Shown here: positions 5,723-58,930 of the stretch, piece after piece
Layout of the letters: each line of letters begins with the position of its first letter
Numbering within the stretch: the first letter of the stretch is position 1
From: an uncultured Verrucomicrobiae bacterium
Lineage (GTDB): Bacteria > Verrucomicrobiota > Verrucomicrobiia > Limisphaerales > JAFGQR01
Direction: 5' to 3'
Length of the DNA stretch: 64,000 nucleotides
Assembly (NCBI GenBank): GCA_963788655.1
Contig: CAWBHS010000088.1
Coordinates: forward strand, 128,001 to 192,000
Position numbers and translations under genes: made by a program
Notes under the pieces: model-generated
Databases searched by the model: none
The model's input: only the letters and a program-made list of their open reading frames with translations
Told to the model about the DNA's origin: nothing

Positions 5723-6446
5723 GGCGGTCCGTTCTCCAGTTTCGCGCGTTCGTCAGCGGGCACATCATCGAGGGTCGCATGCCGGCTCAATTGCAGCGCG
5801 CGGATATAGGCGGCGATGGCCCATCGATCGCTGGGTTCCACCCGTGAGGCATAGGAATACATCACGCCGTAGCCACGGGTCATCACGTCAAACAAATGGC
5901 CGACTGGCGCCTTGCGCAATCGATCGATGTGATACGACGGCGGCGGAGGAAATCCCCGCTGCACAATCATGCCATTGCCTTCGCCCGTGCGGCCGTGACA
6001 CACCGAACAGTAAATGTTGAAACGTTCCTGCCCACGCTCCAGCACCGCGCGCGTGATCGGGATGGGAAATTCCGTGATCAAATTCGTGCCGATCATTCCC
6101 GTGTATAGAGCTTCGTCGTTCCGCAACTGACCCCGGGCGCCACCGTGTGCGGCGGCAGCGGTTGCGATACGGCGCCATCCTCGAAGAAATCAATCGTGCC
6201 CCGAGCGGCTTGGATTTCGGCTGATCGAACATGTCCGGCCGGCAGCCGGTGACGCAGATAATGGCGCCGAGCCAAACAAGAGCCAGCGCGTGATGGAGAT
6301 TCGAAATCCAACTGCCGAAATCCGAAAGCATCCGAAAAGTCGAATCCCAAATCTGCCAGCCACGGCAGCGTTCGTGGCCAAGCGGCATTCGAGTTTCGAC
6401 CCTCGGATTCTACGGCGAACTTCGGATCTCGGACTTCGGCTTTCAC
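5719..6446 (-). CDS. actE: Alternative complex III monoheme cytochrome c lipoprotein ActE (frameshifted)
   Basis: Lipobox VTGC then RPDMFDQPK, DFFEDG, GQERFNIYCSVCHG, DRWAIAAYIRALQ, split over three frames. Start uncertain: GTG 6446 overlapping the actD stop, or ATG 6331. Confidence 0.85.
6296..6444. repeat. Low-complexity TCCGAAA-type heptamer tract and its inverse between actD and the actE signal peptide
   Basis: tcgaaatcc/ccgaaatccgaaagcatccgaaaagtcgaatccc on the left mirrored by ttcgagtttcg/ttcggatctcggacttcggctttc on the right. Confidence 0.6.
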
Positions 6447-6988: not shown

Positions 6989-8383
6989 GTCTCCTCCTCC
7001 TTCTTTTCGGCGACCAATTCACGGACTTCGGTAATGGAAATCATGGGCAGGAACCGAATGAACAGGAACAGTAGCGTGAGGAACAAACCGACGCTGCCAA
7101 ACAACGTCGCCCAGTCCCAAACGTCGGATAGAACATGCCCCAGCTCGAGGGCACGAAATCGCGGTGCAGGCTGGTGATCACGATGACGAACCGCTCCACC
7201 CACATGCCCACGTTAACGGACAGCGCCACGAAGAATAGCGACACCAGATTGGTGCGCACCCGCTTCGACCACAGCAGCTTGCGGGATGAGCACGTTGAAC
7301 AGCATCAGCGCCCAGAAGACCCAGCCGTACGGACCCAACGCGCGATTGGCCATCATGTATTGCTCGAAGATATCGCCGCTGTACCACGCCATGAACGCCT
7401 CCATGATGTAGCCGTAGGTGACCATCATGCCGGTAGCGAGCATCACGTTCGCCACGTTGTTCATGTGGCGCATCGTGATGACGCTTTCGAGGTGATAGAA
7501 TTTGCGGACCGGGATGACGATGTTCAGCACCATGGCGAAGCCGGAATAGATCGCCCCGGCGACAAAGTAAGGCGGGAAAATGGTGGAATGCCATCCGGGC
7601 AGCATGGCCACGGAAAAGTCGAAACTCACCACGCTATGCACCGACAACACCAGCGGCGTCGCCAGGCCGGCGAGGAGCAGATAGGCCATTTGATGGCGTT
7701 GCCAGTGCCGGGCGGAACCGCGCCACCCCAGGGCCAGCACGCCGTAGATGAGCTGCTTGCCGCGGGTCGGCGGCCCGGTCGCGCAGCGTGGCCACGTCCG
7801 GAATCAAGCCCGCATACCAGAAGATCAGCGACACGGTGAAGTAGGTGCTGACCGCGAACACATCCCACACGAGCGGACTGCGGAATTGCGGCCACAGTCC
7901 CATCGTGTCGGGATAGGGCAGAATCCAGAAGAACACCCAGGGCCGGCCCAGATGCAGCAACGGAAACATGCCGGCGCACGCCACCGCAAACAGCGTCATT
8001 GCTTCGGTGAATCGATTGATGGACGTGCGCCACTTCTGGTGCAGCAACAGGAGAATAGCCGAGATGAACGTGCCGGCATGGCCAATGCCGATCCACCAGA
8101 CGAAATTGACAATGGCAAAACCCCAGGCCACCGGAATATTGATCCCCCAGATCCCGACGCCTTTGTAGAACAGCCAGGAGATGGCCGCGAAGAAGAGCAT
8201 CAGGAGAATAAAGGCGATGCCAAACCCGACCAGCCAGCTCCGCGGATGTTTCCGGGTGAGCACAATCGAACCGATGGTGTCCGTAACCGACTCATAGGTT
8301 TCTCCTGGGCGGACCAACTCCGCGGGATAACCCAGGGGTGAAGTGGAATCAGCGGATTGGGGATTGAGATTCTTTGGCGTCAT
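6985..8383 (-). CDS. actC: Alternative complex III quinol-oxidising subunit ActC (NrfD/PsrC family; frameshifted)
   Basis: [72 protein letters not shown] across frames. Alternative start 8419. Confidence 0.93.
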
Positions 8384-8476
8384 TTCCTTCGCTGAATGGT
8401 TAGGGGGAATACCAAACAATCCATGGGGAGCACCCCAATTCCTCGGTCGATAAGCTGGTCAAGAATGTATGCCAAT

Positions 8477-8630: not shown

Positions 8631-11600
8631 TCATGCTGAACCTCCCGCGGATTTTTCCCCTGCGGCCAATGCGGGATTAGGATTGCGCAGCTTGGCCAGA
8701 TAGGTGGTTCGCGGCCGGGTATTCAATTGGCCCAGCATGCTGTAATCCAGCGGCAGCCGTTTCAGTTTGGACACCTGGCTGTCCGGATTGTGAATGTCAC
8801 CAAACACAATGGCTTGGGCAGGACAGGCCTGCTGGCAGGCGGTCCGGATTTCGCCGTCGCGAATGGGACGGTCCTGTTCCTTGGCGGTGATGCGCGCCGC
8901 ACTGATGCGCTGGATGCAGTAGGTGCATTTCTCCATCACCCCGCGCCAACGAACCGTCACATCCGGATTGCGCATGGGTTTGAGACTGGGCGTGTGATAA
9001 TCCGCGTATTGCAGAAAATTGAACCGGCGGACTTTGTAGGGGCAGTTGTTCGAACAATAACGCGTGCCGATGCAGCGGTTATAGACCTGCAGATTCAAGC
9101 CTTCCTTGTCGTGCAAGGTGGCTCCGACGGGGCAAACCAGTTCGCAGGGAGCGTTCTCACATTGCATGCACGGCACCGGTTGATGGCTCATTTGCGGATG
9201 ATCGAGGTCGCCACTGAAATAGGTATCCAGGCGAATCCATTGCATCTCCCGGCGCACAGCGACTTGTTGCTTCCCAACGATGGGGATGTTGTTCTCCGAC
9301 TGGCAGGCCAGCACGCAGGCATTGCAGCCAATGCACGCGGTCAGGTCGATGGACATGCCCCAGTGATACCCGTCATAACGATGCTCCTCCGGGTTGAACA
9401 AAGTCTCCGTTTTGGGGTCCGGAAGTTCCGTGCTCTGCTGGATTAACTCGGGATGCTCCAGAAACGTGGCCAGGGTTGCCTCGCGGTAAATCTGGCGTTC
9501 CTCCGAGTCAATGGCATGGTGGGTTTGTGTCGTGACGAGCGGATAGTGTTTACCGGTTCGGGTCAGTTGAACTGCCGGATTCGACCAGAGCGTATCCGAC
9601 GTGCGCAAAACAAACGCATTGAATCCGGTCGCGCGGCCCGTATGCCCGACCTGGCTGCGCCCATAGCCGAGATAGACCGCGACGGTGCCCTCCGCCTGGC
9701 CGGGAGTGATCCATACCGGCAAACGCAGGGTGCGCTGACCGGTTGCCAACTCGACGATATCACCGTTCGCCAGCGAATGTTGCTGGGCGGTGGCGGGGCT
9801 GATCAAGGCGGCGTTATCCCACGTCAGTTTGGTCACGGGTTTGGCGAGCTCCTGGAGCCAGCCATTGTTCGCGAACCGGCCATCCCAGATCGTTGGGTCG
9901 GGACGGAATACCAATTCGAGTGCCGACGTGCCATCGGCGCTCGTGGATTGGCCGCGCTCACTTTGGCTCAACGCATTCGTAATTGCATTGCGGTCCAGTT
10001 GTGGCGTCTTTTTCGGCAGAGTCGTTCCCGCGATCAACCCGTCGTGCAGCGCCCGGCGCCAGCCTTTCTCAAAGTCCGGCCAGGGGTGGTGCGCGCGCCA
10101 ATACTCGCGCACGATATCGTAATCGCCTCGCACCGGTTGGCGCACGAACGCATCCAACACTTCATGCGCCGATTTGCCGGCATAAAGTGGCAGGATGAGC
10201 GGTTGAACGAGGGAAACCGTTCCATCGTAAGCGCGCGCATCGCCCCAGGATTCCAGGTAGTGATTTTGCGGAATGTGCCATTGGCAGAGGACCGACGTTT
10301 CATTAACGTCGGGGCTGAGATGAACGCGTAATTGAGCCTTCGACAGGTGCCGGTGAAATTCTAAATCCGCCGGCGCCGTGAAGACCGGATTCCCTCCCAG
10401 CATGACCAGCAGATTTACGGTGCCGCTCTTGAGGTCCGCCACCAGTTCACGTAACGAGTCGAGTTGGCTCGCCGGTCGAGGTTCAGCCGATGCCGAGTAG
10501 TGGATGGTCTTGCCGACGTTGCCGAGGATATGATTGATCGCATGCACCGCGGCGTGAACAACGGAGGGCTGATTCTCACCGGCAAGCACGATACCGTTGC
10601 CGCGATGTTGCTGCAGGTCGGCCACGAGCGCTGAAAGCCACGTCCCGTGAACCGAAAGTCCGGGATCAATCGTGGCTCCCGGCAAAGCCCCTAACTGCCG
10701 CCCGACCTCCAAGGCCAGAGCAGCAATCTCGCGGGATCCTAATGCGAGCCGATGATCGGCATTGGAGCCTGTCACGGAGGGGGTGCTCTCCACCACATAG
10801 AGGCGATTCATGTCCAATCGACCGCTGCTGACCCGGCGGCGATCGATAAAGTCGCGGGTGTAACGCAAGCCAGCGGGATGGGAAAACATGAAGTCTGAAT
10901 CCAGGGCCAGCACCACCCGAGCTCGATCGAAATGATAGTGCGCTGCAACCGGCTCCCCGAACGCCAAGCGAGTTCCTTCGTGAACATTGTCGCGATTAAT
11001 CGGTTCATACTGATGCCAGCGCGCTTCGGGAAATTGCGTCATGATTTCCTGAATCTGGGCGTGCAGGGTCGGAGAGATCACCGTTTCAGTCAGGATCCTC
11101 AAACCGGCCCCCCGGGTATTGCGTTGACTTTGCAATGCATCGTGCAGGGCGGACAGGAACGCGGCCCAACTGCTGATTTCGCCGCCGTTGAGAACGGCTT
11201 GCGAGCGGTCGGGATCATACAGGTCAAGCAACGAGGCTTGCTGGAAAACATTGGAGGCACCCAGGCTCATCGGGTGCTCGGGATTCCCTTCAATCTTGGT
11301 GGGATGTCCTTCGTGGCTTTCGACGAGCAATCCCGAGGCGAAGCCGCCCAGGGTCACGGCGGTGGCAAAAAACAACGGTTTGCCGGGGATGATGGCTTCG
11401 GGTTGTTTAATGTAGGGGACAATCTTTTCCGTCGGCTGCTTGGTGCAAGCGGTCATGCCCGCCAGCGCCAGGCTGGCGCCCATCAGTTTCAAAAAGTTGC
11501 GCCGGCTTACGCCATTCAGCCATTCGGAGGCGCGCTCCGGGAATTCGCGATGCACAAACTCAACAAACTCCCGGGTGTGCGCGATCTCCTCCAGGCTGCG

Positions 11601-15909: not shown

Positions 15910-17133
15910 ATGAAGATATTGGCATTGTGTCTAATTTGCGCAACGGTGCCGGTTGCTTGCGGGAGCGGTCCAGTATTTCCCACGGAAGCACCTGCTGGAT
16001 CAAATTCTGCCGCGCGCGTGATTGGCTGGGGTGAAAACGCTGAAGGTCAAATCAATATTCCTGCAAGTGCAACAAGTGTTGTCGCTATCGCTGTTGGCGC
16101 CTACCACAGTCTCGCACTTAGATCTGACGGTATCGTTTTAGCTTGGGGGGCAAACAACGCTGGGCAAATCGACGTGCCAGCCGGGCTCAGCAATGTGATT
16201 TCCATTGATGCCGGGGAATACTACAGTCTGGCTTTGCGTCAAGATGGGACTGTAATTGGGTGGGGAGCCCCCGAAACCGGTCCGTATCCTCCTCCAACCA
16301 GCCTTTCAAACTTAATAAGCGTTGCGGTTGGCCACTCTTTCAACATCGGTCTTCTCTCTGGCGGTGCTGTTGCGGCCTGGGGACCGTGGCCGAGCTACGT
16401 GATTATTGGTTCGAGCGACAATGTCGCAATTGGCAAAGACGGTTTACTGCTGAAATCCAACGGCACTTTGTTCTCCTGGAATCCGCTTGAAAATACCGAA
16501 ACTCAAATCTATCCGGGAATTTCAGACTTTGTCCTCCTTGCGTCCGGAGGCAGCTTTCAATTTCCGCCACCAATGGCTCCAAACAACGAACAGCTTCAGT
16601 TGGCCCCGGTTGCCCCGAGCTACATTCGTGGTCTGGTTCTGCGCCACAATGGTGAGGTCCTTGCTCTTGGTGACAATACATTTGGCCAAGGAAGTATACC
16701 GGAAACTCTGACAGATGCTATTTCCCTAAGCGCCAGCACAGTTTCAAGTATCGCGTTACGCAAAGACGGTTCCCTTGTCGGTTGGGGCATGTTGACCAAC
16801 CCAGCCGTCGGATTGTCAAATTTAGTTCCACCCGGATTATCCAACGTCGTTCGTGTAGCCATAGGTACTCGTCACAGCCTTGCTATAATTGATACCTTAC
16901 CGCCGTCCACTACAGTTCACATTGAACAGTCTTTCAGCGATTTCGATCGGACTTTTTTCAGTTTCTCTACCCGCACAATTTGTGGAAGAGTTTACCTTCC
17001 TGAGAGGATGGGCGCATTATTTCATGACGCTTGGATACCGATGACGCTCTTTCCAGGGAATGGTCTCACTTTGAGTTTCACGAACTTGCAACTTGATTCA
17101 TCGCAGCAATTCTATCGTGTCCGGCATTTTTGA
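15910..17133 (+). CDS. Exported RCC1/BLIP-II repeat protein
   Basis: Signal or lipoprotein-like N-terminus (VAC), repeated AIAVGAYHSLALRSDGIVLAWGANNAGQ units, C-terminal QFYRVR; visibly more AT-rich than its flanks. Confidence 0.85.
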   Translation: MKILALCLICATVPVACGSGPVFPTEAPAGSNSAARVIGWGENAEGQINIPASATSVVAIAVGAYHSLALRSDGIVLAWGANNAGQIDVPAGLSNVISIDAGEYYSLALRQDGTVIGWGAPETGPYPPPTSLSNLISVAVGHSFNIGLLSGGAVAAWGPWPSYVIIGSSDNVAIGKDGLLLKSNGTLFSWNPLENTETQIYPGISDFVLLASGGSFQFPPPMAPNNEQLQLAPVAPSYIRGLVLRHNGEVLALGDNTFGQGSIPETLTDAISLSASTVSSIALRKDGSLVGWGMLTNPAVGLSNLVPPGLSNVVRVAIGTRHSLAIIDTLPPSTTVHIEQSFSDFDRTFFSFSTRTICGRVYLPERMGALFHDAWIPMTLFPGNGLTLSFTNLQLDSSQQFYRVRHF

Positions 17134-17256: not shown

Positions 17257-17618
17257 GGACAGCGGTTTCAGAAAGAGGATTTTGGCGATGACATGCTGTT
17301 TGATCCCAAGGTGTTGCCCAACGAATATCTGACCCAGCCCAAGCTGAGTCACACCTTCGTTTACGTGTCCACCATCCAGCGCATGGCCCGGAACCTATTC
17401 GGTGCCGAGGGATGCTTCCCGCAGACAAGCGGTGACGCCGACTACGAAGACAGTTCCCTCGCCCCCATCGGGGGGAGGGTCAGGATGAGGGGGCAACCGA
17501 CAAACTCGACATCCTCATCCACGCCTTTGATTTGATCATCGCCGACGAATGCCACCGGGGTTACACGGCCCAGGAAATGAGCGTGTGGCGGGACACCGTC
17601 AATCACTTCGATGCGGTC
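17257..17618 (+). pseudogene. hsdR: Internal fragment of type I restriction endonuclease subunit R (EcoAI-like), interrupted by a palindromic repeat
   Basis: VYVSTIQRM then, after an insertion, KLDILIHAFDLIIADECHRGY (helicase motif II); no N- or C-terminal domains. Confidence 0.8.
17455..17493. repeat. Palindromic CCCTCnCCC/GGGAGAGGG-type repeat inserted in the hsdR remnant
   Basis: tccctcgcccccatcggggggagggtcaggatgagggg; a related copy in inverse orientation is at 31432-31465. Confidence 0.7.
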
Positions 17619-17639
17619 AACGGCACCATGCAATTGCTG

Positions 17640-17960
17640 CGAAATCCTCGTTCGACTTCAAATCGAATTGGAGGCGCGTTCAACGAGCGGCGTGAACAAC
17701 ATCAACAGCCAGGAAATTCGGGCGTTACGGTTCCAGCTTCCTCCGCTTGCCGAACAACAGGAAATCGTGCGCCGGGTGGAAGCGTTGTTTGCACTGGCGG
17801 ACCAAATCGAGGCGCGGTTTCAGAATGCCCAGGCCCAGGTGGCTAAGCTAACGCCCTCGCTCCTCGCGCGGGCCTACCGCGGCCAACTGGTCCCGCAAGA
17901 CCCCAATGATGAGTCGGCGGAAAAACTGTTGGAACGAATTCATGCCGAATCCAAAACGAA
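17640..17960 (+). pseudogene. hsdS: C-terminal fragment of type I R-M specificity subunit
   Basis: NINSQEIRALRFQLPPLAEQQEIVRRVEALFALADQIE...SLLARAYRGQLVPQDPNDESAEKLLERI is the conserved HsdS C-terminal region; the N-terminal part is absent. Confidence 0.85.
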
Positions 17961-17961
17961 T

Positions 17962-18160
17962 GTCCCGCAGGGACGTTCGAGAATAGCCCAGCGATTCATC
18001 GCTGGGTTTGCGGCGCAAATGGGCGCGAGTCCCGTCAGGGACGAAAGAATCCCCCTCCGGCGCATTTACCATATTCGTTCGCCCTCCGGGACTCGTCCCG
18101 TTTGCAATCTTGACCCACGGTTGAAACCGTGGGCTATTCTCGGACGTCCCTGGCCGGACT
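17962..18160. repeat. Composite palindromic element (GTCCCnnnnGGGAC family)
   Basis: gtcccgcagggacgttcgagaatagcccagcg is mirrored by ccgtgggctattctcggacgtccc; internal gtcccgtcagggacgaa/ttcgccctccgggact hairpins. Confidence 0.75.
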
Positions 18161-18185: not shown

Positions 18186-18920
18186 ATGCGAAAAAAATTT
18201 GAACTGTTAATGAAGGACTTGTGGCGTGCGCTCGATCATCCGGACGATGACGGACGCACCTTGAGGTCCGCCGGTTGGTGCCTATCGCGGTTTTCCGAGG
18301 ACCTCGGGCGGGATGTGGAGAAAGTGCGTCAGTTACTTGATTTCGGGCGGGCATTGCGCAGCTCGGATGCCCTGGGCCGTCAGGTCGCCGAAGAACGGCT
18401 GATGGACGATTTGATTTACCTGACCGGGAATTGCTCCAACGTGCTCGAAGACGCTGGAATTTCACGTTTGCGCGGTTTTGATGTGGCCTTCCAGGCGCCC
18501 GCAGACTGCCAACCGGTCCTCGGGGTTCTCCAGGCATTGCATGACTATGGCTTGGAATGTCTCCAGTTCAGACGTTCCCGTGATTCGTTTGGCGGTCGGC
18601 GACGCGCGATGGCGTTTGAAATCCTGGCCCGCCTTGGTCGCGTAGTTGATCTGCCTGAAGTGGAGCGCTTGGCCCGGCAGGCATTAGGCAAAAACCAATC
18701 CGTCGAAGCACGCGAGGCTGCGGAGTTTCTCAAGGAATATTATTGCGGACGCGGTGTCGCGCCGGACGACGCGACCACCGACGAACTGTTGTCCCTGGCG
18801 CAACGGACACATTCCCGATCCACGGTCTTCAGCGCCCTGAACGTGCTGGTGGAAACGGGCACGATCAGCGAGTTTGAGGCCTTGGATCGCATGGACGACT
18901 GGAAGGACCGGAACCGTTGA
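18186..18920 (+). CDS. Hypothetical alpha-helical protein
   Basis: Open frame from ATG 18186; Leu/Ala/Arg/Glu-rich; no recognised family. Confidence 0.65.
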   Translation: MRKKFELLMKDLWRALDHPDDDGRTLRSAGWCLSRFSEDLGRDVEKVRQLLDFGRALRSSDALGRQVAEERLMDDLIYLTGNCSNVLEDAGISRLRGFDVAFQAPADCQPVLGVLQALHDYGLECLQFRRSRDSFGGRRRAMAFEILARLGRVVDLPEVERLARQALGKNQSVEAREAAEFLKEYYCGRGVAPDDATTDELLSLAQRTHSRSTVFSALNVLVETGTISEFEALDRMDDWKDRNR

Positions 18921-18957
18921 TACCCATACCGACCATGATCCTCGCCGCACGTGAGTC

Positions 18958-19509
18958 ATGCGCACTGACATTCCAGAAAGACTGCTGAAGATAACGGACG
19001 AAATCTCCGCGCAGGGTCATGCCAACCTTACTCGGTTAACGATCTTGAAAAAGTGGTTTGACCGTCCCGCTCGACTGGCTGGCTTCGCCATCTGGGTGGC
19101 AGCGCGTGCAAATTCGCGGAAAGGCAAAACGGGCGGCCTGGCGGGCGAATTGTTCCAGGAAGGACGGGCGTTGCTGGGTAACGCAAATCCCTATGTCCCA
19201 AGAGTGAACCGGGAAGCAGCGCAACTGTTACGCCGTCGGCTTCGCCAATTTCAGAATGAACACAAGAAACACCAATGGGGACCGGTACGGATCATCAAGA
19301 ATTGGAACCTGCTCCTTGTGGAACAGGGTCTGGAAATTTACCTCTGGCACACGGATTCCCCCGCGCGTGGCTACAAGCTGGCGGCTGATTATTGTCAGCA
19401 CTACGACTTCCGATATGGGAACGGTCTAAACGGCCCCAGTCGGAAAAAAATCGAAGAGATTGTCCGGTTCATGTTCAACTTTGAAGCCGTAGAAGACCAG
19501 CGGAAATAA
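18958..19509 (+). CDS. Hypothetical protein
   Basis: 183-aa ORF 37 bp after the previous gene; YKLAADYCQHYDFRYGNGLNGPS segment; no recognised family. Confidence 0.7.
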   Translation: MRTDIPERLLKITDEISAQGHANLTRLTILKKWFDRPARLAGFAIWVAARANSRKGKTGGLAGELFQEGRALLGNANPYVPRVNREAAQLLRRRLRQFQNEHKKHQWGPVRIIKNWNLLLVEQGLEIYLWHTDSPARGYKLAADYCQHYDFRYGNGLNGPSRKKIEEIVRFMFNFEAVEDQRK

Positions 19510-19766
19510 GGCGAGTGGGCAATGCTCAACTACGGAGAGAATTGTGGCATCCTTTAAGGGCATGTGGCGTACACTAATTCCCGTTGCCAGGCCCGACAGT
19601 TGATGAAGCTTCGCAAGACTCTCGTTCCGGCCAGCGGGAGACTCCTGATGCCGTCTTTTAGGGGGCGCGGGATGTTGCCGATCGGAAGCTGAAAGCTCGG
19701 TCTCGCACGCCCACTAATAAGGGGAGTTAGCGTGTCTCACGATACGCGTCGTAGCGGCGGACTGCG

Positions 19767-19834
19767 ATTTCGGCTTAATATTTTCCATTTCGCCGATGTA
19801 TTTTCGTTTCGGTTATCTTTTTTCTTCAACAACA
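19767..19834 (-). mobile_element. Putative Tn7-like transposon end at attTn7 (glmS 3' end)
   Basis: Minus strand: glmS ...[14 protein letters not shown], 21 nt, then TGTTGTTG-AA and three tandem 19-mers GAAAAAAGATAACCGAAAC, GAAAATACATCGGCGAAAT, GAAAATATTAAGCCGAAAT. Confidence 0.7.
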
Positions 19835-19855
19835 ACCGGGCCCGGAGGGCTTCGC

Positions 19856-21739
19856 CTACTCCACTGTCACGCTCTTGGCCAGGTTGCGGGGTTTGTCCAC
19901 GTCGCAACCCCGGGCGACGGCGATGTGGTAGGCGAGGAGTTGGAGGGGGATGACGGCCAGCAATGGAAAGAGCGGTTCCAGCGTGGGCGGCAGGCAGATT
20001 ACGTCGTCTGCTTTTTGTTCGAGCTTGGTGTTGCCTTCGGTGGTCAACGCGATGATCGGGCCTTGCCGCGCCTTGATTTCTTCGAGGTTGCTGAAGGTCT
20101 TGTCGTAAAGCGAATCTTCCGGTATCACAAATACGCTCGGAGTCTTCTCGTCCATCGAGGGCAATGGGCCCGTGTTTCATTTCGGCGGCCGGATAGCCTT
20201 CGGCGTGGATGTAGGAAATTTCCTTGAGCTTCAACGCGCCTTCCAGCGCCACGGGGAAATTGTATTGGCGGCCCAGGAATAGGAAGTCTTCAGCGGCGGC
20301 GTACTTGAGGGCGATTTGGCGGATGACATCGTTCTGGGCAAGGACGGCTTCCATCTGTTGGGGGATCGCTTCCAGCGCGCGCATAATTTTCAATGCCCCG
20401 ACGCAGCGGACAACATGCGGATGCGGCCCATGAGCAGGGCCAGGAGCGTCAGCACGGCGACCTGCGAGGTAAAAGCCTTGGTGGAGGCCACGCCGATCTC
20501 CGGTCCGGCGTGCAGGTAGATGCCGCCGTCGGCTTCGCGGGCGATGGTGCTGCCCACCACGTTGCAGATGGCCAGCACTTTGTGGCCGCGCCGTTTGGAT
20601 TCGCGCAAGCCGGCCAGGGTGTCGGCCGTTTCGCCGGATTGGGTGATGACCAGGACGAGCGTGTGTTTCTCCAGCGGCGCGTTGCGGTAACGGAATTCGC
20701 TGGCGTATTCGACCTCGGTGGGAATGTGGGCGAACTCTTCAAACAGATATTCCCCGACCAGGGCCGCGTGCCAACTGGTGCCGCAGGCGGGAATGATGAT
20801 ATGGTCCACGTCGCGCAGTTCGGCCAGCGTCATGTTCAGACCGCCGAACTTGGCGGTGGCTTCGTCGTGGTCCAGTGCGGCCGCGCAAGGCATTCTCCAT
20901 GGTGCGCGGTTGCTCGAAGATTTCCTTGAGCATGAAATGCGGGAAAGGCACCGCGCTCAGCCGCCTCGGCGCTGAACTCGAGCTGGCTGATCTGCACCTG
21001 CGCTGGGTCCGAACCCAGGTTGGCCACCTGGAATTGATCTGCGGTCAAAGTCACCACGTCGTAGTCGTTCAGGTAAATGACTTCCCGGGTGTGCGAGGCG
21101 ACGGCGCGTGGCGTCGCTGGCCAGAAAGTTTTCCCCCTGGCCAATGCCGACAATCAAGGGTGATCCGCGCCGGGCACCGACCATCACGTTGGGATCATCG
21201 ACGCAGACGACCGCCATGCCGAAGGTGCCAATGACTTCGCGCAGGGCGTTCGTGACGGCGACGGTCAGCGGATGGTTTTCATGGGGATTGGGAATTCCAC
21301 CTCCGCCTTGGCGTTCGACGCAGACCTTTTCGTAGTGTACTCCGATCAAGTGAGCCAGCACCTCGGAGTCGGTCGTCGAACTGAAGGTGTGATCCTTGAG
21401 CCCATCCTTGAGCCGTTCGAAATTCTCGATGACGCCGTTGTGAACCACGGCGATTCGCCCCCGCTGGTCGTAGTGCGGATGAGAATTGTTGTCCGAAGGA
21501 ACACCGTGGGTGGCCCAGCGGGTGTGGCCCACGCCGGTGCCGCCCACCAGGGGTTGGTCGCGGAGCAGCACCGCCAGGCCATCATCAATTCGGCCTTGTT
21601 GCTTGCGCGTTTGCAGTTCCGTCCCGCGCAAGACAGAAATGCCCGCGCTGTCGTAACCGCGATATTCGAGCCGGCGCAACCCTTCGAGAATGATGGGGGC
21701 CGCCTGTTTTTTACCGACGTAACCTACAATGCCGCACAT
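19856..21739 (-). CDS. glmS: Glutamine--fructose-6-phosphate aminotransferase (several frameshifts, probably sequencing errors)
   Basis: [65 protein letters not shown] across frames. Confidence 0.96.
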
Positions 21740-21835
21740 TATGTTTGGAGCGAATAGCTTAACGGATGCCGCTTGCACTCATTTCCCATAGCAGGGTATA
21801 AACCAGCAAATCAATATTCACGACAAAGGCAATTT

Positions 21836-23143
21836 ATGGCGCAAAGCAAGCGATTGACACCCAACACCAGCAACGTGTTGGCCGTGATTATGGGGGGAGG
21901 TGTGGGCACGCGGTTGTTTCCCCTGACGCGGGACCGGGCCAAACCGGCAGTGCCGCTGGCCGGAAAATACCGCCTGGTGGACATCCCGATTTCCAATTGC
22001 ATCAATTCCGGCATGCGCCGCATTTACCTGCTCACTCAGTTCAATTCCACCTCATTGCACCGCCATATTTCGCAGACGTACAAGTTTGACCAGTTCATGG
22101 TCGGGTTCGTCGAGATTCTGGCCGCGCAAATGACGCTCACCGACTCGACGTGGTACCAGGGCACCGCGGATGCTGTGCGGAAGAACCTGGTCCACTTCTT
22201 GAATCATGATTTCGAATATATCGTCATCCTCAGCGGCGACCAACTGTACCGCATGGACCTGCGCCGCATTATCGCGCAGCACATCGAAACCTACGCCGAC
22301 GTGACGGTGGCCACGCTGCCGGTTCTGCGCAAGGATGTGCCGGGCTTCGGAATCATGGAAATGGCCGAGGACCGCCGCATCACCCGGTTTGTGGAGAAGC
22401 CCAAGGATCCGCAGATCCAGGACACGCTGCGGCTGGACAAGGCCTGGTATCCCAAGCTGGACATCGAAGGCGACGACGAGTTTTTCCTGGCCAGCATGGG
22501 CATCTATGTCTTCAACCGCGACGCCTTGATTCGCCTGCTGGACAATGATCTGGCCGACTTTGGCAAACACGTCATTCCCATGGCCATTGCCAACAGCCGC
22601 GTGTTCTCCTATGTGTTTCAAGGGTATTGGGAGGACGTGGGAACCATCCGTTCATTTTTCGAAGCGAACCTGGAAATCGTGGCCGAATTGCCGCGGTTCA
22701 ACTTCTTCGACATGGGCGCGCCGATTTTTACGCGTCCCCGCTTCCTGCCCGCCTCGAAATTCAACGGGGCTCACATCGAGCACGCGGTCATCTCGGATGG
22801 GTGTATTATTACCCAGGCGCAAATCCGGAATTCCGTGGTCGGCATTCGCAGCATCGTGGGCACCCACAGCGATTTGAACCGTTGCGTTGTACTGGGCAAC
22901 GATTACTACGAATCGCAATCCTCGATTCTCGAAAACGAGATGGTGGGCAAACCGCGCATTGGCATCGGCCAAAACGCCCGCATCGAGAACGCCATCATCG
23001 ATAAAAACGCCCGCATCGGCGACAACGTGGTGATCTCGCCCGCCGGCAAACCGGAAAACGTGGACCACCAGCATTACTACATTCGCGACGGGATCGTGGT
23101 CATTCCGAAGAATGGCTTCGTGCCGCACGGAATGACGATTTGA
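21836..23143 (+). CDS. glgC: Glucose-1-phosphate adenylyltransferase
   Basis: GGGVGTRLFPLTRDRAKPAVP, WYQGTADAV, FVEKP, ASMGIYVF, YWEDVGT and left-handed beta-helix C-terminus. Confidence 0.97.
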   Translation: MAQSKRLTPNTSNVLAVIMGGGVGTRLFPLTRDRAKPAVPLAGKYRLVDIPISNCINSGMRRIYLLTQFNSTSLHRHISQTYKFDQFMVGFVEILAAQMTLTDSTWYQGTADAVRKNLVHFLNHDFEYIVILSGDQLYRMDLRRIIAQHIETYADVTVATLPVLRKDVPGFGIMEMAEDRRITRFVEKPKDPQIQDTLRLDKAWYPKLDIEGDDEFFLASMGIYVFNRDALIRLLDNDLADFGKHVIPMAIANSRVFSYVFQGYWEDVGTIRSFFEANLEIVAELPRFNFFDMGAPIFTRPRFLPASKFNGAHIEHAVISDGCIITQAQIRNSVVGIRSIVGTHSDLNRCVVLGNDYYESQSSILENEMVGKPRIGIGQNARIENAIIDKNARIGDNVVISPAGKPENVDHQHYYIRDGIVVIPKNGFVPHGMTI

Positions 23144-23183: not shown

Positions 23184-24861
23184 TCAGCGAAGGAGCGTGG
23201 CGGCGTGACGGCGGGCGGCGTCGCTCTGTCCCCCCAGCATGCGCGCCAGTTCTGTGACGCGATCTTTTCGCTCCAGCAACTCGATTTCGGAAATGGTCCG
23301 GCCCTCTTTGACTTGTTTGGTCACCACGTAATGGGCCGTGCCGTGGGCGGCGACTTGGGGTAGATGCGTAATGCAAATAACCTGTCGGCGGTCGGCAATC
23401 TGACGCATTTTTTCGCCGACCGCATTCGCAGTTTCGCCGCCGACGTTGGCGTCCACTTCGTCGAAAATCAGCACCGGAATTTCGTCCTCGGCCGCCAGCA
23501 CGGTCTTGAGACCCAACATCACCCGCGCCATTTCGCCCGAGGACGCAATGGCGCGTAACGGGTGGGCGGGTTCACCCGGATTGGGCGCGAACTGGAACTC
23601 GACAGCATCCAAACCGCTGGTCGAGATGGACACGGGCGAAGGAGAATTTGACGTTGCCGTGGTGAGGGTGACATCGAACTGGCATTGATTGAAGCCCAGG
23701 GCTTGCAGTTGTTTCTCGACGGCTTTGCTGAGCCGCGGAATCAACTTGCGGCGTTGGGCCGAGAGTTCCTTGCCGCAGCGCCACAGTTCCTGGTCCAGCT
23801 TTTCGAGTTCACTGTTGATCCGGGCCAGTTCCGCTTCGCGCTCTTGCAGACTGTGCAGCTTGCGTTGCGCTTGCTCGCCAAACGCGATCACCTCGGCCAG
23901 CGTTGAGCCATACTTGCGTTTCAGGGAATGCATCAGGTTCAGCCGCTCTTCGAGTTCGTGCAGGCGGGCGGGGTCGAGTTCGAGACGGTCCACGTAATGG
24001 GCGAGTTCATTCTGCAATTCCCGCAAACCGGTCGCCGCCTGCTCCTGGGCAGCCACGAGCGTCGCCGCCCCCGAATCAATTCGGTGCAACTCCTGGAGAA
24101 TACGGCCCAGCGCGCCCGTTTGGGTCATCACCGAGGCCTCGCTCTCGCCCAGCAGGTTGACTGCGGCCTGACCGAGTTCGAGGAGTTTGGCGGCGTTGCT
24201 GGCGCGCTGATGGTTCTGTTCCAACTCCGCTTCCTCTTCGGGATGCAAGCGAGCGGCACTGATTTCATTGACTTGAAACCGCAGTAAATCGAGTTGTTGG
24301 GCGTAAGTCTGCTCGTCCACGACCAGCGCGGCCTTATCAGCCTCGAGGGCGGTGCGCCGGCGAACTCGCGCCGCAAAGGCTTCGCGCGATCCGTGCAAGT
24401 TGCCAAAGGCATCCAGGATGGTGAGTTGTCGGGCGGCATGCAGCAGTGACTGATGATCGTGCGGGCCATGAATGTCCACGAGCCATTCCCCGACACTGGC
24501 CAGAATGGTGAGGGTGGTCGGCGAACCGTTGATGAATTGGCGATTCGAGCCGGCAGCGGTAAAGGAGCGTTTAAGAACGAGTTGGCCTGCTTCGCACGGT
24601 TCCAGGCCGTTCTCTTCGAGGAACGCCGGCAGCGGGGCGCGGAGACGGCTGACATCGAAACACCGCTTCAACGGAGCAAGCGTCCGCGCCGCTGCGAATC
24701 AGGGTGCGGTCGGCGCGTTCACCCAGCACCAGCGTGAGGGCGCCGATGAGGATGGACTTGCCGGCGCCAGTTTCGCCAGTGATGACGTTGAGGCCGGGCT
24801 GAAGCTCCAGCGTCAGGTCGGCCACCAGGGCGAGGTTCTTGATCCGCAGCGTCGTCAGCAT
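23184..24861 (-). CDS. recN: DNA repair protein RecN (frameshift near 24665)
   Basis: MLTTLRIKNLAL, TGETGAGKS Walker A, IHGPHDHQ, ASSGEMARVML, LIFDEVDANVGG, CITHLPQVAA. Confidence 0.96.
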
Positions 24862-25116
24862 GGTAGAAAACGTTCGCGCTGAATTTGGCGTTTGTGCTAG
24901 GTTCGCGCAAAGAAATTCTTGAGCATGAACCGACATCAATTGCGGGAAATAAAGGGCAGTGACGAGTGTACAGGTTTCGAGCAGTGGGCAAACTGGCGAA
25001 CTGGCGATGGGGGTATTAACCAACCACTAGGCGGATTCGTGAGCGGTCGCTACGCTGGTCGAAATGTGCATTGCCGTCCTGAGCCTGGCGGGGATTTCGT
25101 TTTGCGCGGCAGCGTT

Positions 25117-25192
25117 TTGGAGTGCGGCAGTCCTCTGCCGCTTTTCGATCATTGGGGGCATCCGAAAGCGGTAGAGGACTGCCGCACTCCAA
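25117..25192. repeat. REP-like inverted doublet, GGAGTGCGGCAGTCCTCTGCCGCTTT family
   Basis: Arms at about 25117-25144 and 25165-25192 are near-perfect reverse complements. Confidence 0.85.
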
Positions 25193-25283
25193 GACCTGGC
25201 GGCGAGTCGGCTGGTGGCTTCCCCGAAGACCAAAACTGTCTTTGCAGCCCCAATCTTCCAGCCGTTAGTTGCCCCACCACGTA

Positions 25284-26084: not shown

Positions 26085-27961
26085 AGCAAAGCACCCCACG
26101 ATTATTTCGCCGAATTCTTGTTGCGGGTAGGGCGAGACTCCGTCGAGCCCTGACATTCCCGCATCGCGTTCAATTATCCACAACCGGAAACGTGGAAAGC
26201 CTCGGGCGTCTCGAACACCAAACCTCTCCCCTGAGACGACCGTTGATCGGCGGACGCCCTCCGGGGAAGTCAGGGCTCGACGGAGTCTCGCCCTACCGGA
26301 TTGGACTCTCGCTGCTCTGGCTGATCATCTGCGCTATCTGTTGGGCGTTCTCCGTTCCGACCCAAGCCGCCGACAATCCCGGCGACGAAGTGGTGGTGGT
26401 TTACAACACCACCATGCCCGAATCGCGCGAGGTGGCGGAATACTACGCTAAACGCCGCCAAGTGCCCGCCAGCCAGGTGATGGGATTTGCGTTGCCCCAA
26501 TCGGAAACCATTTCGCGGCCGGCGTACACGGCGGAGCTGCAAATCCCGCTCTCGAAGAAGTTGGAAGCTGGCAACTTGTTCACGTTCACGAAGACCAACG
26601 GTGGCCTACGACAGGTGACCAGCGCGAAGATACGTTACCTCGCGCTGTGCTACGGAGTGCCGATCAAAATCCAAAGTGATCCCGCACTGGTTGAGCCCGA
26701 AGCTGAGAAATTGCAGCCTGAACTCCGACGCAACGAGGCTTCGGTGGATAGCGAATTGGCTTGTTTGCCGGTGGTTGAATCCAAGTTCATCTGCGCCGGT
26801 CCCCGAAGGAATCTGCTTTACGGCACGACCAACGCCGCGTGGCTGAATCCAACCAACGGAATCTTGCTGGTAACGCGGCTCGACGGACCGACCCCGGAAA
26901 TTGCCCGCGGCCTGGTGGACAAGGCGCTGGCCGCGGAAAAGGACGGCCTCTGGGGGCGGGCTTATTTCGACCTGGGGTGGAGCCAGGGCAACAGCAATTA
27001 CTTGAGTGGGGATCAATGGATTTTCGAAGCGGCCAAGCTGTGCCGAAACCTGGGTTTTGAAACCGTCCTCGATACCAACAAAGGCACGTTCCCCGCCACG
27101 TTTCCATTGTGCCAAACGGCCTTTTATGCGGGTTGGTATGCCGGCCAGGCCGAGGGACCGTTTAGCTGGGACGGAGTCGAGTTTATGCCTGGTGCGTTCG
27201 CGTATCATTTGCACTCGTTCAGTGCGGCCACCATTCGCTCGGCCACGCACAATTGGGTCGGGCCATTGCTGGCCAAAGGCGCGACCGCCACGATGGGCAG
27301 CGTGTATGAGCCGTATCTGGCGGCCACGCCAAACATGGGAATCTTCTTTGGGCGCTTCACCTTCTTCGGCTTCAGTTTCGGCGAAGCCGCGTGGGCGGCG
27401 CAGAATTGTGTCTCCTGGCAAAACCTCGCGGTGGGTGATCCGCTCTATCGTCCGTTTGGCCGACGGCCCGAACAATATGCGGCGGAACTGGAACGTCGCG
27501 GAAGCAAATTGATCGATTGGTTCGTATTGATGCGCCTCAATATTGGTCTGGCCAAAGGCGGCACGTTGGGCGGCGCCATTGAGGCACTCAAAGCTTCAAA
27601 GTTCACGGCCAAAAGCGCTTTGCTCGAAGAAAAACTGGGCGATCTTTTTTGGCTGGGTGACGATCGTTCGGAAAGTCTCAGCGCTTTCGACAAGGCCCTA
27701 AAATTGAAGCCGACACGCCTGCAAAAACTGCGTCTGTTGCTCCGGCAAACCGAACGGCTCACCCTTGATGGCAAGCGGAAACAAGCAATTGAACGCTACC
27801 AGCAACTGCTCAAGGACTATCCGGATTACCCCGGCCAATTGGACCTCTATCAAAAGCTGTTACCGTTGGCGCGCGAGGAGGGCAACAAGTCCGTGGTGAA
27901 GAAGTGCGAGAAAGAGATCGAGCGTTTGTCACCCCCGCCAGCCGAACCACCAACTGAATAG
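26081..27961 (+). CDS. TIGR03790-family exported protein with C-terminal TPR-like region
   Basis: EVVVVYN...[68 protein letters not shown]. Confidence 0.85.
26126..26297. repeat. REP-like inverted doublet, GGTAGGGCGAGACTCCGTCGAGCCCTGAC family, inside the 5' end of the TIGR03790 ORF
   Basis: Perfect 29-bp inverted repeat, 26126-26154 versus 26269-26297. Confidence 0.9.
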
Positions 27962-28015
27962 GCGGTGCCCATTCAGTTGGCGCGGGCTTGGATCCCTGCC
28001 GCCAGCCGCAATTCA

Positions 28016-28149
28016 TTCGGATAGGCGTCCCGCGTGTCTTGAACGGCACCAAGACGTGGACTTGGGTCGCAACCCCCAGACTTTTTCGGCGTCAGCAAAC
28101 AGTAAGGAAAGCCCTGAGCTGTTCGAGACCGGCGAGAGGCCTGTCCTAC
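28016..28149. repeat. REP-like doublet, GTAGGACAGGCGTCYCGCCTGTC family (degenerate copy)
   Basis: ggataggcgtcccgcgtgtcttgaac ... gttcgagaccggcgagaggcctgtcctac between convergent genes. Confidence 0.75.
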
Positions 28150-29513: not shown

Positions 29514-29564
29514 AGTTCAATTCCGCATTCGGCTTAACTTGAAAGCGAAATGGAATATGACCTA

Positions 29565-29730
29565 CGGGAACAGCCGCGACGGTTGTCTTACGTGGGCGCG
29601 TGCGCCGCGCGCTGGTAGGACAGGCGTCTCGCCTGTCTCGGACTTGGCCACCGCGTCCGTTTGCATATCAAACGTTCAGCAATCCGAGGACATTGCTGGA
29701 CGTTCGCGACAGCCGGGACGGCTGTCCTAC
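29565..29730. repeat. GTAGGACAGGCGTCTCGCCTGTC-family REP: one solo arm plus one doublet
   Basis: Solo cagccgcgacggttgtcttac at about 29571-29591; doublet arms 29615-29642 and 29703-29730. Confidence 0.85.
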
Positions 29731-34297: not shown

Positions 34298-34328
34298 ACC
34301 GTGAACCTTGAATGGACCTCTGCAAATC

Positions 34329-34447
34329 GTAGGATAGGCGTCCCGCCGGTCCCGAATAGTCCAGATGGCGTTCGAAACTCGGCGCAAGATCCCATTGCAT
34401 GGGAAGCGGGTCTGATTGGTTCGGGACAGCCGAGACGGCTGTCCTAC
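34329..34447. repeat. GTAGGACAGG-family REP doublet between glpK and glpD
   Basis: gtaggataggcgtcccgccggtcccgaa ... ttcgggacagccgagacggctgtcctac. Confidence 0.85.
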
Positions 34448-34480
34448 GGTGCGGTTTCCCGTCCGCATAATTAGTGCGAA

Positions 34481-36056
34481 ATGAACCGCTCTGAAATGAT
34501 CGAAACCATGCGTGCCTCGGCCGAGCCTTGGGACGTGATCATCATTGGCGGCGGCGCCACCGGTTTGGGATGTGCCGTGGATGCGGCGGCGCGCGGCTAC
34601 CGGACGCTGTTGCTTGAACAGCACGACTTCGCCAAAGGCACCTCGAGCCGCAGCACCAAGCTGATCCATGGCGGCGTGCGCTATTTGCGGCAAGGCAACG
34701 TGGGACTGGTGCTCGAGGCCTTGCGCGAACGCGGCTTGCTCACCCAAAACGCGCCGCACCTGGTCCACAACATGGCGTTCATCGTGCCGAACTACGAATG
34801 GTGGGAGGCACCGTTCTACGGGGTGGGCTTGAAGCTTTACGATCTGCTGGCGGGCAAGCTCGGACTGGGACCGTCAAAACATTTATCGCGCGAGGAAACG
34901 CTAAAGCATTTGCCCACCCTTCAACCGGAGGGCTTGCGCGGCGGCACCATTTACCACGACGGCCAGTTCGATGACGCGCGTTTGGCAGTGTGCCTGGCGC
35001 AAACCGCGGTGGACCTCGGCGCGGTGGTGGCCAATTACGCGCCGGTCATCGCCCTGCAAAAGCAAAATGGTCTGGCGCATGGGGTCGTGGTCCGCGACTT
35101 GGAAGCCAGTCAGGACTTGGCGCTCAATGCCCAAGTGGTCATCAATGCTACCGGCGTGTTTGCTGATGCGGTTCGGCGCTTGGACGACCCGGCTGCCGAC
35201 GATCTCATTGCCCCCAGCCAGGGCGTCCATCTCGTGTTGGATCGCTCGTTTCTTCCTGGTGACAGCGCGATCATGGTCCCTCGCACCGACGACGGTCGGG
35301 TAGTTTTCGTAGTGCCGTGGTTGGACCGGGCGTTGGTCGGCACAACCGACACGCCCATCACCCGGCCCGAATTGGAGCCCCGACCGTTGCCCGAGGAAAT
35401 CAAGTTCCTCTTGAGCCACGCTGGACGCTATCTTACCAAGCCCCCGACAGCCTGCGACGTCTCTGAGCGTTTTCACGGGATTGCGCCCGTTGCACACGAC
35501 CGGCGGCGCCAAGGAAACGGCGGCCTTGCCACGCGACCATAGTGTTTGGATTTCTCCGTCGGGCTTGGTGACGATCACCGGCGGCAAATGGACCACCTAC
35601 CGAAAGATGGCCGAGGACACCATCAACCAGGCCGCCACTGTGGGTGGGCTTTCGGAACAAGCCTGCCGCACGAACGACCTGCATTTGCACGGATGGATCA
35701 GTCCTGTGGAGAAAGAACCGGTTGCTGAACCCGACCACTGGCAAGCCTACGGTGCTGACTGGGCGACGTTGCGCGCGCTGGTGCAAGCCCGGCCGGAACT
35801 GGGCGAACCCGTTCATCCGCGTTTGCCCTATTGCGCGGTTGAAGTCATCTGGGCGGTTCGCCAGGAAATGGCGCTCACCGTGGAAGACGTGCTGGCGCGG
35901 CGCACCCGGTCGCTGTTGCTGGACGCGCGTGCCAGCGTCGAGGCGGCACCCAAAGTGGCCGAGTTGATGGCTGCGGAACTCCACCAACCCCCGGCTTGGG
36001 CCGATGCGCAGGTGAACGCATTCAGGCAAGTCGCCCAAAGCTATGTGCTCGATTGA
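34481..36056 (+). CDS. glpD: FAD-dependent glycerol-3-phosphate dehydrogenase (frameshift near 35462)
   Basis: IIGGGATGLG, GTSSRSTKLIHGGVRYL, DGQFDD, GTTD; then GLRPL, ITGGKWTTYRKMAED, EDVLARRTR in the next frame. Confidence 0.95.
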
Positions 36057-36984: not shown

Positions 36985-37371
36985 GCAGTACAGCGCGTAC
37001 CTCCTGTCCCGAATTATTCCAGATGTCGCTCAATCGTATGCAATTGCAGCTCTGCCTCTTGGCGTCTCGCGACATCACGCCAGTGTCTGGAGTGCGCGGA
37101 GCTTGCTCCCGCTTTGCTTGCAGGATGCGCCAAGACCACCAGGCAGCCGGTTTCAAAATGCGATCATCGCAACCCATCCGAAAGCGCCGGCAAGCCGGTC
37201 GCAGTCCAAGCGCTGGCGCGACTCATTCTACGCCTTTCCACAACAATCACTCAGGACGCATATAATCATCGCTATTGGCCCGACGATTGTTGGTCGCCAT
37301 TCACTTGTTGTGTGTGCGGGGCGAGAGGGAAAGCCAATAACCATTCGGGACAGCCGGGACGGCTGTCCTAC
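36985..37371. repeat. Nested REP doublets: GTAGGACAG-family element containing a GGAGTGCG-family doublet (37088-37209)
   Basis: Degenerate left arm ...cctgtcccgaattattccagatg resembles the 34329 copy (ccggtcccgaatagtccagatg); right arm 37344-37371; inner tggagtgcgcggagc...cgcagtccaa. Confidence 0.7.
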
Positions 37372-42397: not shown

Positions 42398-42546
42398 AGG
42401 TTCATTTACTCCGTGATACGGCATAAGTATAAACCATGTTACCCCACCCGGCAACTATTGGGTCTGGTGGCAGCAGTTCGGCGTCCCGTATGGACGCGAA
42501 AAAGGCCGGAAAATACCGGCCGGTCGAGAAGCAGTGGTCGCTGAAA

Positions 42547-45851: not shown

Positions 45852-46136
45852 TCGGACTAAATTTGCGGTGACAACTAAACAAATTACGGACCAAACACAA
45901 GTCAGGAGTTTGCGGCGTCCGGCACGCCGCAGTTCCTCAGACTTCCGGCGATGGGACCTGGCCACCGCAAGGTTCGACGCCACTGGCCAGCCGGGCGGTC
46001 TGAGCCGGGCAAATCAACGGCCGATCGGTGGCCAATCTGCGGAGCATCGGCCGGCAACCTTTCTAAAAGCCAACGTTGACAGGTTGTTGGCCGCCGATTA
46101 GCCTCTCGCAAAAAATGACCCTGAATTGTCTGTAAA

Positions 46137-47070: not shown

Positions 47071-47143
47071 CCGGGATGTTTCACGGCCTCACCTTTGCCG
47101 TATCCATTCAGTAGCTGGAGCAGCGATGACGCGCTTCGGCGCG

Positions 47144-47276
47144 GTAGGACAGGCGTCTCGCCTGTCTCGAATAGCCAAGCCCATCCGCCCCTGTTGGCGA
47201 CCGGAAGAGACTTCCTACGCTGCGGTGCAAATCGATGGTTGGCAGTCGTTCGAGACAGGCGGGACGCCTGTCCTAC
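47144..47276. repeat. GTAGGACAGGCGTCTCGCCTGTCTCGAA REP doublet
   Basis: Arms 47144-47171 and 47249-47276 are reverse complements with one mismatch; between convergent genes. Confidence 0.9.
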
Positions 47277-58865: not shown

Positions 58866-58930
58866 CCGGCAAAGCCGACGTAATCGGAGTATATCCAGCC
58901 GGGCAGTTGAGCTGGAACGATTCAGTTGGA

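Follow-up and report, generated by a model that had tools for sequence, protein, structure and literature searches.

Three abutting 19-base repeats just past glmS in a Verrucomicrobiae bacterium: a possible relic of a Tn7-like transposon end

We analysed the DNA immediately downstream of glmS, the gene for glutamine--fructose-6-phosphate aminotransferase, in a 64,000-nucleotide stretch from an uncultured Verrucomicrobiae bacterium (contig CAWBHS010000088.1, positions 128,001 to 192,000 of the forward strand; hereafter "the window", to which all positions refer). The gene lies on the minus strand and its TAG stop codon occupies 19858-19856. It is followed on the same strand by a GC-rich spacer that includes the palindrome CCGGGCCCGG, by the segment TGTTGTTG, by an AA, and then by three imperfect direct repeats of 19 bases, the second and third of which are parted by a single G at 19786 (Table 1). 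All three repeats share the pattern GAAAA-N8-CGAAAY and stand on the glmS sense strand, the first beginning 10 nt from the T of TGTTGTTG, and the array as a whole sits between two convergent gene ends. The plus strand reads ACCGG at 19835-19839, which would be the target-site duplication if this were a transposon junction. The patch that holds the array (19761-19839) has 30-37% GC in a window of 58.7% GC, is one of seven such low-GC 60-nt patches in the window, and begins abruptly, with GC dropping from 76% to 30-37% at 19834/19835. A first-pass annotation had read these letters as the glmS-proximal end of a Tn7-family element; its coordinates for the stop, for TGTTGTTG 21 nt past glmS, for the 19-mers and for ACCGG are all correct, and the measured base composition bears out the AT-rich patch that it described.

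Table 1. Features at the 3' end of glmS and on the far side of the array, with positions in the window
Feature	Position	Strand	Basis
glmS (glutamine--fructose-6-phosphate aminotransferase)	19856..21739	-	translation; Pfam GATase_6/7 and SIS matches
GC-rich spacer, 21 nt, GCGAAGCCCTCCGGGCCCGGT, glmS stop to TGT	19835..19855	-	sequence reading
TGTTGTTG, candidate 8-bp terminal segment (5'-TG...)	19827..19834	-	sequence reading
Repeat 1, GAAAAAAGATAACCGAAAC	19806..19824	-	sequence reading, pattern match
Repeat 2, GAAAATACATCGGCGAAAT	19787..19805	-	sequence reading, pattern match
Repeat 3, GAAAATATTAAGCCGAAAT	19767..19785	-	sequence reading, pattern match
Non-coding stretch, 257 nt, array to convergent 183-aa gene	19510..19766	.	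no RNA family, unusual fold or credible open reading frame
Conserved hypothetical gene, intact, 183 aa (P0001), convergent with glmS	18958..19509	+	homologues, AlphaFold2
Conserved hypothetical gene, intact, 236 aa (P0121), HEAT/armadillo-like alpha-solenoid	18210..18920	+	homologues, AlphaFold2
Inverted-pair element, ~190 bp	17961..18152	.	repeat search; Rfam Acido-Lenti-1
Type I restriction-modification remnant, decayed	17532..17992	+	PADLOC, NCBIfam, Pfam

The three 19-base repeats are real and are the only ones of their kind in the 64 kb. A search of both strands of the window with the pattern GAAAA-N8-CGAAAY returned three exact matches, all in this array. Eleven of the 19 columns are invariant across the three copies; 100 first-order Markov windows gave best three-copy scores of 7-9 at period 19 and none of 11, and shuffles of the 76-nt patch reached 11/19 at any period from 12 to 23 in 0.14% of 5000 trials. 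The eight variable columns are clustered, six of them being contiguous (p ~0.012), a distribution that would be expected of a constrained binding site.

Transposons of the Tn7 type recognize this part of the chromosome. The final glmS codons are read by TnsD or TniQ, the transposase TnsB occupies a series of ~20-bp sites beside an 8-bp terminus that starts with TG, and the element joins the chromosome at a fixed distance past the glmS stop. We used canonical Tn7 at attTn7 of E. coli LR-46 (NZ_AP027537.1; locus L082) as a control, treated with the same script as the window, and scored geometry on glmS-downstream segments with a simple three-copy measure at periods 15-24. In the control, the terminus TGTGGGCG lies 25 nt past the glmS stop with the TnsB-site array directly after it; the score is 0.65, the array begins at an offset of 32 after the stop, and the period is 20-21. 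The window scores 0.579, with a stop-to-TGT distance of 21 nt, an array offset of 30 and a period of 19-20, and the interval from TGT to the first site is 10 nt in the window and 8 nt in the control. Both arrays stand on the glmS sense strand within 8-10 nt of a TG-initiated 8-bp terminus, are AT-rich, and carry at least three abutting direct repeats of ~20 bp. In position and layout, the array of the window is like a Tn7 right end. By contrast, it has three sites rather than four, it lacks a left end and a duplication, and its repeat sequence is unrelated to the control sites, as the first-pass annotation had said in calling it unlike canonical Tn7. Further, tnsA begins 160 nt past the glmS stop in the control and is followed by annotated tnsB, tnsC, tnsD and tnsE, whereas the window holds no tns gene or fragment.

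The published descriptions point to the same layout. According to the available excerpts of PMC10201428, Tn7-like ends have a terminus of 8 bp whose essential TG lies ~8 bp from the first TnsB site; in the window a TG opens the 8-bp segment, and its T is 10 nt from the first repeat. Where such right ends carry three or more closely packed direct sites of ~15-22 bp, the window has three of 19 bp (alike in form, the binding sites themselves being putative), a short distance past the glmS stop and with the would-be right end facing glmS. In the excerpts of PMC8649781, arrays of 15-20-bp sites mark the ends of such elements, the predicted outermost site lying a median of 12 bp from the boundary, and Tn7-like transposases are recorded in 5 verrucomicrobial and 4 acidobacterial species.

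Relatives were sampled as 80 glmS loci kept from at least 600 matched stretches of genome contigs. A geometry score of at least 0.55 was reached by 2 of 81 glmS-downstream segments, those of the window and of locus L010 (the Tn7 control not being counted), and by 0.3% of ~3000 random 120-nt segments of the fetched loci. Among the matches listed, the array is absent from all 21 loci labelled with verrucomicrobial lineages, and none of the 80 listed loci carries the motif of the window. L010, a contig of an acidobacterial metagenome-assembled genome (MAG; DATMRF010000038.1), has at its positions 10309-10420 four direct copies of AATAAARTTGGAAAC, three abutting at a 20-nt period and the fourth ~45 nt further in. 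It scores 0.684, with its TGT 23 nt past the stop, 11 nt from TGT to the first site, and an array that starts, as in the window, at offset 30. Neither locus has tns genes or an inverted partner (10 kb examined in L010), but the L010 motif is unrelated to that of the window, is better conserved (13-15 of 15) and comes from another phylum; its 20-kb locus yielded no inverted copy of AATAAARTTGGAAAC, and no duplication of the flank was seen within 10 kb. That the feature is sporadic and varies in sequence but keeps its position suggests a mobile end more than a signal conserved by the host.

We propose that TGTTGTTG and the three 19-mers are the relic glmS-proximal (right) end of a Tn7-like element, and put the probability of this reading at roughly 0.45. 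We infer that TnsB-type proteins would once have bound the 19-mers and that an insertion took place. A Tn7-family transposon would have inserted shortly past glmS, at the conserved attachment site; its transposition genes, its left end and most of its interior would since have been lost or replaced, leaving a short variable island of restriction-modification debris, an inverted-repeat element and two hypothetical genes, and the remaining end would no longer be mobile by itself. The searches for other transposon features, given below, found none, and a relic is therefore the sole form in which the claim is left. The first-pass annotation had left the choice between a relic and a non-autonomous element: the relic is what stands, not proven, and the assignment to a Tn7-family right end is matched by the geometry of L082 and lacks tns genes, partner end and duplication in the window.

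A number of results weigh against this reading. Pfam profiles detected no TnsA, TnsB (rve), TnsC or TniQ/TnsD, and no transposase or integrase of any kind, in the 150 longest stop-to-stop open reading frames (ORFs) of the window (at least 138 aa); no Tns domain was found in 13 ORFs at E<=1, or in 90 ORF fragments of at least 40 aa between 14.5 and 19.9 kb at E<=0.01. The 64-kb window holds the motif nowhere in inverted orientation; allowing up to two mismatches in 12 core positions gave 12 scattered hits and no array, and no inverted CGAAAY or GAAAAW pair 15-45 nt apart lies near a TGT terminus. On the plus strand the string ACCGGTGT (ACCGG, then TGT) has just two occurrences, 49276 and 59276, both across glmS from the would-be interior; the interior side within the window holds no ACCGG-TGT to make a 5-bp duplication at both ends, and the window has no partner left end with the same terminus and inverted sites. 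The first-pass annotation had itself seen neither tns genes nor a partner end, and the domain and inverted-motif searches agree; the partner flanked by ACCGG that it anticipated was not found in the window, nor did any of the window ORFs searched match a TnsA/B/C or TniQ/TnsD profile.

The relatives and the array itself add to these points. Of 155 plus-strand ORFs of at least 230 aa downstream of glmS in the loci, we profile-searched 119 from 68 of the 80 listed loci, leaving out 36 ORFs (third, overlapping or very long), all ORFs of 12 loci, and minus-strand ORFs except in L010. None of the 119 is a Tns protein, and complete elements at glmS are therefore rare or absent in this sample. Eight ORFs over the 10 kb downstream of the L010 glmS likewise carry no Tns domain, and L010 is not a validated control because it is just as orphan as the window. 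An association with tnsA, tnsB, tnsC, tniQ or tnsD, in cis or through the motif, was seen neither in the window nor in the 80 listed glmS loci, and no TnsB-encoding element seen was found to carry the motif. Tandem Repeats Finder at a minimum score of 30 does not report the array, whose copies number only three and are 58% invariant; over all periods from 12 to 30 its fraction (0.58) does not exceed the null maxima (0.50-0.67), since chance alone brings short periods to that level. The stop-to-TGT distance is 4 nt shorter than that of Tn7. TG is a trivial match for a terminus, and the terminus test carries little weight, TG being common and the register of the repeats arbitrary by 1-2 nt. The 8-mer TGTTGTTG occurs twice in the window, both times on the minus strand (19834 and 42908), and can equally well be read as (TTG)3, a U-rich tail behind a weak hairpin; following a small GC hairpin, (TTG)3 could be a weak terminator tail. 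Finally, the supplement of PMC8649781, so far as visible, gives a single verrucomicrobial consensus for TnsB sites (Lacunisphaera, RGTGACGTTTTSAWTDW), which is unlike the motif of the window. An actinobacterial clade-2 consensus in the same supplement (KACYGACACGAAATTGRRAA) has CGAAAT-TG-RRAA, close to the CGAAATGGAAAA junction of the window, and is a lead only.

A candidate left end, in the corresponding orientation, was considered at 6302-6337, where four CGAAA fall within 36 nt of the plus strand, 13.5 kb off. We rejected it: the spacing is irregular (7-13 nt) and the GAAAA half-motif is missing; the cluster starts TGATGGAG after GCGCG, with no matching terminus or duplication; and it extends over the junction of actD and actE, with the predicted start and signal peptide of ActE, inside an alternative complex III operon. 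This cluster, too, counts against a transposon end beside glmS, as it shows that short CGAAA-rich repeats form in this genome with no transposon involved. Its (A/T)CCGAAA units resemble in flavour the palindromic ATCCGAAAT repeats seen at L049 and L080, and the window shows no enrichment of CCGAAAT (17 observed, 14.4 expected). A mini-element with TGTTAATGAAG at 18205 was also discarded, since that string falls within the first codons of the 236-aa gene and no motif follows it. No tRNA or tmRNA gene was found to offer an island another attachment site.

The array could instead belong to the host, as a lineage-specific cis element of three bipartite sites (CGAAAY-GAAAAWA every 19-20 bp, about two helical turns) for a chromosomal DNA-binding protein, such as a regulator, a nucleoid protein or a partition/iteron-type protein, that would affect 3' processing of glmS or a transcript next to it. 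Conserved half-motifs around a variable 6-nt centre do resemble a binding site, other AT-rich patches of the window lie at gene 5' ends (for example 21777-21838, between glmS and glgC, and 46094-46197), and the window yielded no transposon feature. This explanation is nonetheless unlikely: no regulator, Rep or Par gene adjoins, the neighbours being an all-helical protein and a HEAT-like solenoid; a promoter scan of 18800-20200 found 0 sites on either strand; the convergent gene ends leave nothing downstream of the array to regulate; and the motif recurs neither elsewhere in the window nor at the 80 listed glmS loci. Plasmid and phage iterons and centromere repeats are similar in being direct repeats of ~19-22 bp in an AT-rich patch, but Pfam identified no rep or par gene nearby, and blastn in its "distant" mode matched 19510-19870 to no plasmid or phage. 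Arrays of TniA/TnsB sites with 19-bp repeats also occur in Tn402/Tn5053-type elements, which are alike in unit length (15-20 bp) but have their targets elsewhere and inverted arrays at both ends. It is equally doubtful that the repeats are neutral, a unit of ~19-20 nt triplicated by replication slippage in an A-rich spacer and then drifted, with its place beside glmS a coincidence. The flanks are simple sequence ((TTG)3, A6), the cluster at 6302-6337 is a second CGAAA-rich micro-repeat in a non-transposon context, the planctomycete loci L049 and L080 carry ATCCGAAAT as simple repeats, and several loci of the Planctomycetes-Verrucomicrobia-Chlamydiae (PVC) group have short tandem repeats right after glmS (L022, L033, L036); the silence of Tandem Repeats Finder and the homopolymer indel errors of the assembly fit as well. 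Against slippage and drift, the strongest period-19 array in 64 kb lies within a few nucleotides of the position equivalent to attTn7, its variable columns are clustered rather than scattered, and its period and copy arrangement match those of TnsB-site arrays.

Two further explanations are highly improbable. The array could act as RNA, as a terminator, a pad for an RNA-binding protein or a small RNA in the glmS 3' untranslated region; the 101-nt minus-strand piece 19860-19760 folds better than its shuffles (z -2.41, with 6 of 200 shuffles as good), TGTTGTTG pairing in that fold with GATAACCG of repeat 1 while repeats 2 and 3 form a hairpin. Against this, folds of 361 nt are unremarkable on either strand (z -0.39 and -0.12); the best hit of an Rfam E-value search over 18800-20200 reached 20.2 bits against a gathering score of 71.8 and lies inside glmS; a gathering-score search of the whole window with Rfam 15 gave no match in 19510-19860; and a terminator scan of the minus strand across 18800-20200 returned no site. 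The sole local hairpin, ahead of the U-rich run, pairs just 4 bp (GCCC/GGGC), short of the GC-rich stem of at least 5 bp and T run of an intrinsic terminator, and the corresponding 56-nt fold has a z of +0.86. Alternatively, the array could be the right end of a complete, large Tn7-like element with its left end and tns genes over 19.8 kb away, past coordinate 1 of the window. The window, part of a contig of 319,579 nt, covers only 19.8 kb of the interior side, and some Tn7-like families, such as the type I-F3 CRISPR-associated elements, carry tnsABC at the end far from the target; the interior of such an element would, however, hold alternative complex III, cytochrome oxidase operons and a two-component system, all of normal GC and core-like. 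There is also little reason to expect that the host has kept an orphan TnsB-site array for its own use, either as target immunity that "vaccinates" the glmS site against cognate Tn7-like elements or as a docking end in trans, and we consider this very unlikely. Target immunity is described in section 2.8 of PMC11406308, as excerpted, and well-formed arrays at the same position without a transposon in two unrelated genomes, the window and L010, would fit recurrent retention.

If the array is a relic right end, its interior side begins with the variable stretch that extends from glmS to an RCC1-repeat gene (15910-17133). The restriction-modification remnant in this stretch is an HsdR fragment of ~30-43 aa with a DECH helicase motif joined directly to the ~100 C-terminal residues of HsdS; hsdM has been deleted together with the greater part of hsdR and hsdS. 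PADLOC matched positions 287-327 of its REase_I profile and positions 375-489 of 571 of Specificity_I (3.5e-31), NCBIfam matched positions 277-304 of EcoAI R and 349-448 of 461 of PRK09737, and Pfam matched Methylase_S and ResIII. Directly after the hsdS remnant comes the inverted pair, with 40-nt arms (17968-18007 and 18113-18152) that are 83% complementary and 105 nt apart; the left arm is Acido-Lenti-1 (RF01687; 17961-18006, minus strand, 48.8 bits against a gathering score of 37). The pair looks like a small mobile or palindromic element.

The two intact genes that follow offer no DNA-binding or transposition lead by Pfam, NCBIfam, PADLOC, AlphaFold2 models searched with Foldseek against the PDB, or the ESM Atlas. 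For P0001 there are 364 homologues at E<=0.001, with identities of 64-78% among the best; most are metagenomic and a few are labelled Limisphaerales or Verrucomicrobiota. The protein matches no Pfam, NCBIfam or PADLOC profile and is predicted to be all-helical (predicted local distance difference test (pLDDT) score 86) and of no known fold, its best PDB match being at E 0.41. P0121 has 46 homologues and a model with a pLDDT of 94, for which Foldseek found only designed or natural ARM/HEAT repeat proteins, at E 0.006 and weaker. Taken as a whole, the interior side is a decayed, lineage-specific island, which favours the relic reading.

Restriction-modification genes are among the cargo reported in the excerpts of PMC8649781. 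In Acinetobacter baumannii, according to the excerpts of PMC11014353, 54 of 203 genomes have an insertion downstream of glmS, only 21 of these are predicted to be functional, over half of the insertions being remains that no longer work, and the islands range from 1.9 to 25.2 kb. The window resembles these islands in that the site past glmS holds non-functional remains, here a stretch of ~2.7-5 kb with decayed defence genes; it differs in that the A. baumannii islands, as the excerpted text presents them, were recognised through intact Tn7 relatives in sister strains, and in that its own phylum is Verrucomicrobiota.

The relatives share one side of glmS with the window. On the glgC side the window is syntenic, the glgC-glmS arrangement being common to 12 of the 80 listed loci; no genes or sequence downstream of glmS are common to the window and those loci, and chains of tblastx hits downstream of glmS in relatives were set aside as spurious sums of short hits. 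The closest relative among the matches listed is 77% identical in amino-acid sequence over the GlmS C-terminus. The sole transposase among the 119 ORFs searched is of the IS1595 family and lies at 1301-2173 of L018, ~1 kb downstream of glmS in a verrucomicrobial MAG. In L051, AACGTCACCGTCGAGTGA at 7612-7632, directly past the glmS stop, encodes N-V-T-V-E-stop again, a second copy of the final glmS codons such as an earlier insertion carrying a gene end with it might have left. Across E. coli, 2998 of 5425 genomes match at least 80% of the K-12 glmS-pstS spacer, and many others lose similarity 1-2 nt past the glmS stop; the region is therefore variable even without Tn7.

The wider window reads as ordinary chromosome by Pfam matches to its 150 longest ORFs, with cytochrome oxidase and alternative complex III at 0.5-12.4 kb, a two-component pair, glgC divergent from glmS, recN and sugar metabolism. 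The nearest relatives of GlmS, GlgC and neighbouring genes are, among the matches listed, mostly Verrucomicrobiota MAGs, some of them labelled Limisphaerales, which supports the verrucomicrobial host that had been surmised from the letters. As assembled, glmS has five compensating frameshifts: tblastn with the L003 GlmS aligns residues 1-620 over 21739-19859, with frame changes near 21107-21159, 20935-20945, 20875-20877, 20387-20396 and 20157-20170. All five lie at short homopolymer runs, and amino-acid identity to relatives is still 63-87%; these look like homopolymer indel errors of a long-read assembly rather than decay. Five frameshifts in the 1.9 kb of glmS are a striking local excess. 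Genes for ActC/NrfD (7216-8458), RecN (23187-25026), a glycerol-3-phosphate oxidase-like protein (34475-36053) and an aldehyde dehydrogenase (40842-42454) are each split once, and ORFs of 900-1200 aa are intact in the window. Intergenic DNA elsewhere carries palindromic units resembling repetitive extragenic palindromes (GTAGGACAGGCGTCTCGCCTGTC... and its complement), often as inverted pairs, at 28011-28149, 29564-29730, 34328-34447, 37344-37371 and 47133-47287, with direct-repeat families D1 (6 copies) and D3 (4 copies); other long hairpins lie at 25105-25204, 26126-26297 and 58906-59107.

If the array were a host element instead, it would be a small unexplained protein-binding site of local interest. 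The relic reading, if true, would add a further Tn7-type end of a known kind and would leave the understanding of the Tn7 mechanism unchanged. It would also record that Tn7-family elements were once active at the attachment site beside glmS in Verrucomicrobiota, a phylum for which the survey in PMC8649781 lists few of them, and would supply a candidate transposase-binding motif with which intact elements may be found, of use to mobile-element catalogues and possibly to the development of insertion tools for soil and freshwater bacteria that are hard to engineer.

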